271 nt of DNA from Escherichia coli (GCF_003334785.1 NZ_QOWV01000091.1), one strand, 5' to 3'; positions 1-271 are shown, counted from the first letter of the stretch. Program-made: numbers and translations. Notes: generated from the letters alone by a model not told the origin.

Positions 1-2
1 TC

Positions 3-36
3 GTAGGCCGGATAAGGCGTTCACGCCGCATCCGGC
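3..36 (-). repeat. REP palindromic unit, Y type (copy 1)
   Basis: + strand reads GTAGGCCGGATAAGGCGTTCACGCCGCATCCGGC, the reverse complement of the Y consensus written 5'-GCCGGATG...CCTAC-3' (strand given in that convention; it would be + if REP is written GTAG-first). Imperfect stem arms 7-19 and 25-36 around loop ttcac (20-24). Confidence 0.8.
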
Positions 37-49
37 AATGGTGACAAAT

Positions 50-78
50 GCCTGATGCGCTACGCTTATCAGGCCTAC
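50..78 (+). repeat. REP palindromic unit, Z2 type (copy 1)
   Basis: GCCTGATGCGCTACGCTTATCAGGCCTAC; imperfect dyad with arms gcctgatgcg / cgcttatcaggc around a short central tac; terminal CCTAC (GTAG on the opposite strand). Head-to-head with the Y PU across the 13-bp linker 37-49. Confidence 0.8.
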
Positions 79-95
79 AGATTCTCGCGCCACTC

Positions 96-129
96 GTAGG
101 CCGGATAAGGCGTCCACGCCGCATCCGGC
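96..129 (-). repeat. REP palindromic unit, Y type (copy 2, loop variant)
   Basis: GTAGGCCGGATAAGGCGTCCACGCCGCATCCGGC; identical to copy 1 except the loop reads tccac instead of ttcac (t21 vs c114). Stem arms unchanged. Confidence 0.8.
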
Positions 130-142
130 AGTGGTGGCAAAT

Positions 143-171
143 GCCTGATGCGCTACGCTTATCAGGCCTAC
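143..171 (+). repeat. REP palindromic unit, Z2 type (copy 2)
   Basis: Identical to 50-78. The upstream linker 130-142 (agtggtggcaaat) differs from 37-49 (aatggtgacaaat) at two positions. Confidence 0.8.
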
Positions 172-188
172 AGATTCTTGCGCCATTC

Positions 189-222
189 GTAGGCCGGATA
201 AGGCGTTCACGCCGCATCCGGC
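189..222 (-). repeat. REP palindromic unit, Y type (copy 3)
   Basis: Identical to 3-36, including the ttcac loop. Confidence 0.8.
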
Positions 223-235
223 AATGGTGACAAAT

Positions 236-264
236 GCCTGATGCGCTACGCTTATCAGGCCTAC
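236..264 (+). repeat. REP palindromic unit, Z2 type (copy 3)
   Basis: Identical to 50-78 and 143-171; followed by agattct, the start of the tail-to-tail linker, where the window ends. Confidence 0.8.
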
Positions 265-271
265 AGATTCT

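Follow-up and report, generated by a model that had tools for sequence, protein, structure and literature searches.

A stretch of Escherichia coli DNA that is tandem repeat from its first base to its last raises the question of what the repeated element is, how far it extends, and whether the number of its units belongs to the genome or to its assembly. The stretch analysed here, which will be referred to as the window, comprises 271 nt. A first-pass annotation of the sequence had described it as an array of near-identical 93-bp units, truncated at both edges, without unique flanking DNA and prone to collapse or expansion when assembled from short reads.

The repeat itself is readily defined. 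TRF reports one array spanning positions 1-271, with a period of 93 nt, 2.9 copies, 95% matches, no indels and a score of 507, and a repeat search of the window returns three in-register copies of 85 nt, starting at 1, 94 and 187, that are 96-100% identical. The repeat accounts for every base of the window and leaves none outside, in agreement with the earlier statement that no unique flank is present among these 271 bases. The register assigned to the opening dinucleotide is likewise exact, as TC is found at 1-2, 94-95 and 187-188, and the third unit, which would finish at 279, is indeed 8 nt short of completion where the window stops at 271. Each 93-nt unit is composed of a GTAG-footed imperfect palindrome, a 13-nt linker, an inverted palindrome ending in CTAC and a 17-nt linker. 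The three units of the window differ from one another at five positions only (21, 38, 44, 86 and 93), all of them in loops or linkers, with positions 38 and 44 falling in the short inner linker (S linker), and the second unit can be recognized by the markers GCGTCCACGCC and CAGTGGTGGCAAAT. When folded as single strands and compared with shuffled controls, the two palindromes form hairpins of -12.1 kcal/mol (z2 type) and -8.1 kcal/mol (y type), with a z of -4.5 for each. The repetition of the window goes far beyond chance because each unit consists of two known REP palindromes, and the resulting organization is detailed in Table 1.

Table 1. Features of the 271-nt window, in window coordinates, with the evidence on which each assignment is based.
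Feature	Position	Strand	Evidence
Final TC of a 16-nt tail-to-tail linker that begins 14 nt before the window	1-2	+	Register with 94-95 and 187-188; upstream sequence
z2-type REP, unit 1: GTAG 3-6, imperfect palindrome 7-36	3-36	+	Inverted repeat, DNA hairpin
13-nt short head-to-head linker (S type), AATGGTGACAAAT	37-49	+	Sequence; homologous to the REP325 inner linker
y-type REP (inverted), unit 1: palindrome 50-74, CTAC 75-78	50-78	+	Inverted repeats, DNA hairpin
17-nt tail-to-tail linker, AGATTCTCGCGCCACTC, locus-specific	79-95	+	Genome distribution of the linker-centred 44-mer
z2-type REP, unit 2, loop variant C at 114	96-129	+	Inverted repeat; unit comparison
S linker, unit 2 variant, AGTGGTGGCAAAT	130-142	+	Unit comparison
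y-type REP (inverted), unit 2	143-171	+	Inverted repeat; Rfam alignment
17-nt tail-to-tail linker, variant AGATTCTTGCGCCATTC	172-188	+	Sequence, unit comparison
z2-type REP, unit 3	189-222	+	Inverted repeat
S linker, unit 3	223-235	+	Sequence
y-type REP (inverted), unit 3	236-264	+	Inverted repeat; Rfam alignment
First 7 nt of the last tail-to-tail linker, whose other 10 nt and the fourth z2 REP lie outside the window	265-271	+	Locus sequence
Rfam naRNA4 (RF02564) match, 78 bits	6-75	+	Covariance model, gathering score 59.5
Rfam naRNA4 (RF02564) match, 72.4 bits	99-168	+	Covariance model, gathering score 59.5
Rfam naRNA4 (RF02564) match, 78 bits	192-261	+	Covariance model, gathering score 59.5
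Part of the annotated ORF yahH (b0322, 106 aa in MG1655), probably not a real gene	1-271	-	Annotation

The extent of the array becomes apparent once the window is placed in its locus. The window is 100% identical to positions 339801-340071 (minus strand) of E. coli K-12 MG1655 and is found unchanged in the yahH region of many other E. coli genomes; in the retrieved loci it matches exactly at 3802-4072 on the minus strand of the MG1655 locus (L002) and at 2501-2771 on the plus strand of L001. In MG1655 the whole array is housed in the 421-bp spacer between yahG and yahI, and TRF reports it in both loci as 360 bp and 3.9 copies (L002 3757-4116). The array therefore runs on past both edges of the window, as had been supposed. 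On the left, which is the yahI side, 14 linker bases and one y palindrome (43 nt) separate the window from unique DNA, while on the right, the yahG side, 10 linker bases and one z2 palindrome (44 nt) do so. Beyond these, unique DNA amounts to 50 nt up to the yahI ATG and 13 nt up to the yahG stop codon. Inspection of the flanks, which had been proposed as a check, reveals unique DNA on both sides, not immediately but after a further 43-44 nt of array. Read in the orientation of the window, the spacer consists of four blocks of y palindrome, outer linker and z2 palindrome, of which the first measures 92 nt and each of the rest 93 nt, so that the full K-12 allele counts eight palindromes (four y-type and four z2-type) in four pairs. 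The earlier caution that the unit number cannot be read from the window alone is well founded, whereas the figure of 2.9 is not the true count, since four pairs (3.9 units) are carried by the one allele in which the window occurs exactly; the value of 2.9 is a consequence of where the window was cut.

This array is a known, catalogued element. Indeed, it is listed in EcoCyc as REP23 and fills the annotated gene yahH. A REP is an imperfect palindrome, about 25-35 nt long, that carries a conserved GTAG foot. BIME-2 elements are defined by alternating inverted y and z2 REPs with a short inner linker, a flanking motif and tandem amplification, and they are homogeneous within a locus and variable in copy number between strains (Ton-Hoang 2012). 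All these traits are recognizable here: y- and z2-type REP palindromes with GTAG and CTAC feet occur at 3-36, 50-78 and so forth; REP and inverted REP strictly alternate through the four pairs, with inner linkers of 13 nt and outer linkers of 17 nt; the tandem copy number varies from 0 to 5 pairs across complete E. coli genomes; and the array is extragenic, lying wholly in the yahG-yahI spacer, where the overlapping yahH is judged spurious. Taken together, it is highly likely that the window represents the interior of the REP23 BIME-2 array of the yahG-yahI spacer, in its K-12-type allele, at a locus that carries 0-5 pairs and to which a hairpin and gyrase role may be ascribed by analogy. Two other candidates were set aside. 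REP325, suggested by the matches to the Rfam model naRNA4, lies between yjdM and yjdN and has a period of 100 nt, and the RRS elements, which are 222-bp repeats, are unrelated to the window.

The outer linker provides a signature of the locus. Of 5,426 genomes, 1,488 contain a 44-mer that has this linker at its centre, with 1-4 occurrences per genome, and 24 of 25 sampled rows fall under yahH or an equivalent 'hypothetical protein', the remaining one lying where no feature is annotated. Since the outer linker is locus-specific, the array must have grown by local amplification of one unit. In a collection of species-representative genomes the outer-linker pattern has a single hit, in CAJYVI010000043.1 (L010, 8307-8335), a metagenome bin labelled 'uncultured Pseudocitrobacter sp.' that contains a 2-pair array with unique flanks identical to those of E. 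coli; this is probably a mis-binned E. coli contig.

The annotation of yahH (L002 3770-4090 in MG1655) suggests a different use of the same DNA, namely that the array encodes a real YahH protein made of 31-residue repeats, within the triple role in DNA, RNA and coding proposed by Neuhaus et al. (2016). Many genome annotations include the ORF, one 93-nt period is exactly 31 codons long, each outer linker offers an ATG or GTG in frame, and ribosome footprints have been reported on the ORF in EHEC EDL933, with an RPKM of 56 and a coverage of 0.61 (Neuhaus 2016). However, the minus-strand frames -1 and -2 are both stop-free across the window because 93 nt correspond to 31 codons, and the openness of two of the three minus-strand frames thus follows from periodicity. 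Moreover, about 54% of the sampled intact loci have 0 or 1 pair and hence no such ORF, yahH is absent, truncated or differently called in the alleles with 0-3 pairs, and its annotation is inconsistent, ranging from 106, 98 or 67 aa to a pseudogene fragment or nothing. The ORF ends where the 92-nt unit shifts the frame, a termination that is due to the single-base difference in that unit. The variation among units tracks the anatomy of the hairpins, being found in loops and linkers, no mass-spectrometry peptides are listed (Neuhaus 2016), and footprints on a highly structured, multi-copy RNA are, in our reading, weak evidence of translation. An NCBIfam scan of YahH yields no model above its cut-off; a match to SidA in three stretches of 13 residues, which at 32.5 bits stays under the cut-off of 35, was dismissed as an artefact of repetition and composition. 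Neither a curated family nor an ORF conserved across strains was thus found for yahH. A real YahH protein is unlikely, and the coding array with its triple role is very improbable; the yahH ORF is best regarded as the product of a repeat that happens to have a period of 31 codons.

The number of pairs was then considered across strains. The locus with its unique flanks was searched against 5,426 complete E. coli genomes, and rows were taken at even steps of the ranking in two spread samples of 60 records obtained with different queries; the resulting 120 rows, which are a sample and not a full census, were classified by alignment span, and at least one example of each span class was fetched to confirm the spacer length. 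Eleven of the 120 records have no pair (spacer of 94 bp), 45 have one pair (142 or 153 bp), 4 have two pairs (235 or 246 bp), 6 have three pairs (328 bp), 29 have four pairs (421 bp) and 8, all O157:H7, have five pairs (514 bp), while the other 17 rows have no locus, only part of it, or a hit on a plasmid. No allele of more than five pairs was seen among the 120 sampled records, and pair numbers always change in steps of one 92-93-nt unit. The double spacer lengths of 142/153 and 235/246 bp, which are 11-bp steps, arise from a 10-nt difference in flank plus a first unit that differs in length by 1 nt. In particular, two types of flank are found beside the last z2 palindrome on the yahG side, ATGAACATGTAGG, which is the K-12 type, and AGAAACAACGCGCACTTTACAGA, which is 10 nt longer (L004 and L006 compared with L001 and L005). 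Furthermore, each array contains one 92-nt unit in which CTACAATTC replaces CTACAGATTC, and this is the first unit in K-12 (L001 2458-2549) and the second in O157:H7 (L008).

These counts track lineage. Five pairs are found in all sampled O157:H7 records whose locus is intact, in agreement with the five repeat blocks independently reported for EDL933 (Neuhaus 2016). In parallel, 1,236 records match the window and 1,374 match the whole 781-bp locus at 99% identity or more, with large blocks of independent assemblies that share identical spans and scores. As the counts are consistent within lineages, the differences are mainly real strain polymorphism, ranging from 0 to 5 pairs, which is a known property of BIME-2 elements (Ton-Hoang 2012). 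Among 27 units from nine alleles, the outer linker carries 8 of the 15 variable columns and each change in a stem is a singleton, a distribution in line with the published view that linkers vary whereas REPs are conserved. Two loci depart from the regular series. In the 0-pair strain JNE21-009 (O166:H15; L007 474-567) the place of the array and of its 13-nt flanks is taken by a different sequence of 57 nt, so that the locus is not a clean empty site; in mRNA sense, this sequence contains an 11-bp hairpin, CCCUUCUCCCU/GGGGAGAGGGG, without a U tract and at the same intercistronic position. In strain JSMCR1 (L018 2184-3263), yahI is without its N-terminus, the array has lost roughly its first 160 nt and yahG is interrupted by a stop codon; either a local deletion with one end in the array or an assembly of low quality would account for this locus.

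The susceptibility to assembly error raised by the first-pass annotation therefore has to be divided into two parts. Most of the variation in count is genuine, as it is lineage-consistent and the 4-pair allele is that of the MG1655 reference, whereas some records of the K-12 lineage do lack one unit. Indeed, a junction joining unit 1 to unit 3, namely a precise loss of 93 bp, is present in 12 records, at least nine of which are of K-12 lineage (GM4792, two AG100 records, KLY and five labelled MG1655). FELIX_MS516, whose flanking proteins are identical to those of K-12, also carries the junction, as does the natural isolate JNE151685, within a 2-pair allele. In the five records examined (GM4792, AG100, KLY, CP010445 and FELIX_MS516; L011, L013, L014, L015 and L017), the 328-bp spacer corresponds to that of MG1655 minus one 93-bp unit; KLY is a KL16 derivative, and CP010445 is one of the five records labelled K-12 MG1655. 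The unit lost in records of the GM4792 type is the middle one of the window (94-186), which is also the only variant unit.

It may be argued from such records that the unit count of the genome from which the window derives is itself an assembly artefact, and that collapse or expansion of short reads explains the differences between genomes. For all values of K tested up to 87, the K-12 locus contains repeated (K-1)-mers (65 at K=55, 21 at K=77 and 1 at K=87), the GM4792 assembly was built with ALLPATHS-LG and GapCloser from 100-bp Illumina reads only, the exact one-unit-loss junction relative to MG1655 recurs in 12 mostly K-12-lineage records, and the missing unit is the variant one, as the popping of bubbles in an assembly graph would remove. 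However, repeated (K-1)-mers disappear at K of 96 or more, where the array should in principle be resolvable, and an array of only 360 bp would be resolved by 2x150 pairs or by any long read. The MG1655 reference record itself carries the 4-pair allele, the locus is closely matched in 1,374 records, and counts are consistent within lineages. Moreover, the 3-pair structure is common to five checked records of differing source, including the much more recent FELIX_MS516 accession. The breakpoint of the loss has 42 equivalent placements and hence 41 nt of homology, the longest exact internal repeat being 86 nt; the junction is not the one of longest homology and fits a real deletion, inherited or recurrent, at least as well. 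An artefact does not explain the window's own allele, and as a general account of the counts it is extremely improbable. For the 3-pair K-12 records, a real deletion, whether inherited or recurrent, is slightly more likely than an artefact, and the existence of K-12 records without the window's middle unit is one small new point. Units would be gained and lost by replication slippage or by unequal recombination between direct repeats, possibly with the assistance of TnpA-REP (RAYT), which recombines BIME units in vitro (Ton-Hoang 2012). The sequence features expected of a TnpA-REP substrate, namely a 5' GTAG, a stem mismatch and an inverted REP with C|T sites, are present in every pair.

As to what REP23 does, its transcriptional context offers some indications. 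A promoter scan found no sigma-70-like promoter on the yahG-to-yahI strand of the spacer, the single promoter-like match being on the opposite strand and inside yahI, and no intrinsic terminator, that is a GC-rich hairpin followed by a T run, was found on either strand of L002 3500-4400. The region has been placed inside a yahDEFGIJ transcript (Neuhaus 2016), and the array is therefore probably transcribed as an intercistronic segment. Its sense RNA folds at -191.7 kcal/mol (z of -7.1), and its first hairpin begins 13 nt past the yahG stop codon. A REP influences how the preceding gene is translated when it lies no more than 15 nt from the stop codon, according to a second-hand account of Liang et al. 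(2015), and the first hairpin of REP23 falls inside that range.

Experimental work on the REP23 array itself was not found in the literature, and the closest guide to its function is REP325, a BIME-2 array of Z2/Y REPs that is the source of naRNA1-6 (Qian 2015; Harris 2026). When REP325 is deleted, expression of the gene downstream rises 8-10-fold and the mRNA upstream falls; REP325 RNA is seen as a ladder of species that end in hairpins and depend in part on Rho; and REP effects are context-dependent (Harris 2026). By analogy, the best-supported reading is that REP23 acts like REP325, between yahG and yahI. In such a scheme yahG and yahI would be co-transcribed through the array, as for REP325 and other BIME-2 elements; the eight RNA hairpins would shield the upstream yahG message from 3' exonucleases and would in part terminate transcription, in a Rho-dependent manner, before yahI and yahJ; and the number of pairs would set the ratio of upstream to downstream expression. 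A broader proposal may be derived from this, in which the pair number is a heritable dial on yahG:yahI/yahJ expression and the recurrent 93-bp loss of unit 2 in several K-12 sublineages, at 41 nt of homology where 86 nt are available, is a site-preferring deletion mediated by hairpins or by TnpA-REP and not the product of simple slippage driven by homology length or of assembly error; as a joint claim, this is unlikely.

The DNA of the array may also be a target of gyrase, which binds and cleaves BIME-2 elements in vivo, preferentially in y REPs, and by analogy the y palindromes of REP23 are likely gyrase cleavage sites. According to the paper on RRS elements, BIME-2 sites have a tendency to fall between supercoiling domains. 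The text supplements of the gyrase Topo-seq paper make no mention of yahH, yahG, yahI or REP23, and the eight REP arrays whose mobilome coverage is unusual do not include REP23.

A further role has been proposed for REP325 RNAs, and it could be extended to REP23 if its units were naRNA4-like RNA genes whose products, with HU, bridge cruciform DNA and condense the chromosome. Binding to HU and effects on the nucleoid have been reported for REP325 RNAs (Qian 2015), and three matches of 72-78 bits on the plus strand of the window pass the naRNA4 threshold. These are the only matches in the full K-12 array, all three lying within the window and antisense to the yahG-to-yahI direction, which is the only evident transcription; on the minus strand, which is the sense strand, the model reaches 52.7-53.9 bits, under the gathering threshold. 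Furthermore, the Rfam model in effect detects any pair of z2, linker and y. For REP325 itself, deletion and over-expression are without effect on nucleoid size, in a study that shares an author with the original claim, and neither a stable ternary complex nor REP-REP contacts in Hi-C were observed (Harris 2026). That REP23 units act in this way is therefore scarcely probable, and the intercistronic role modelled on REP325 is to be preferred.

Taken alone, the finding is of little importance, as it assigns the window to a repeat already catalogued in E. coli and shows how far the array really extends. In practical terms, those who type or assemble the yahG-yahI region should expect lineages to differ genuinely in steps of 93 bp, and where near-identical strains differ by one unit they should regard the difference as unverified unless spanning reads have been checked. 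If copy number does tune yahI and yahJ, the natural series of 0-5 alleles would represent a ready-made test of the proposal that REPs are dials of the 3'UTR.

Comparison with known systems helps to define what is common and what is particular in REP23. Like Rho-independent terminators, the array provides GC-rich RNA hairpins 3' of a stop codon; however, such terminators need a U tract, which all REP23 hairpins are without. Like BIME-1 or RIB/RIP elements, REP23 contains inverted REP pairs at the 3' end of a gene, but those elements are single-copy and combine y and z1 around a long conserved L linker with an IHF site, whereas REP23 has a 13-nt inner linker and an amplified unit. With the REPIN/RAYT system it shares inverted REP doublets, in the form of z2/y pairs, with the GTAG foot and stem mismatch needed by TnpA-REP, and the CT dinucleotides in its inverted REP and linker match the type of cleavage site reported; yet REPINs disperse as doublets, at a duplication rate reported to be extremely low, while variation at REP23 consists in the local gain or loss of units. 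Within the BIME-2 family (Gilson, Bachellier, Hofnung; Ton-Hoang 2012) the architecture, the intergenic site, the homogeneity within the locus and the strain-variable count are all shared, and nothing essential differs, REP23 being distinguished by a short y variant and by the yahH ORF annotated on top of it.

The nearest relative remains REP325, and on sequence comparison the two are paralogous arrays. Both are tandem head-to-tail arrays between two co-directional genes and match the same Rfam model, and both have the same order within the unit, namely GTAG-z2, a 13-nt linker, y-CTAC and a 17-nt linker. When two units of each array are aligned, 74 of the 93 positions of the window unit are invariant; the z2 palindrome of REP23 is identical to the Z2 of REP325 except for two loop columns, and the base of its y stem matches that of the REP325 Y. 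The differences concern position (339.8 kb for REP23 and 4,325.8 kb for REP325), number (four pairs in K-12 at REP23 and six at REP325), the sequence of the outer linker, which is particular to each locus, and orientation, as REP325 is transcribed in the direction that matches naRNA4 whereas REP23 is inverted relative to transcription, so that the quantitative effects measured at REP325 may not transfer. Finally, the period is 93 nt in REP23 and 100 nt in REP325 because the y palindrome of REP23 is 7 nt shorter in its apical part, as is evident from the 7-nt gap that it leaves both in the Rfam alignment and in the alignment with REP325.
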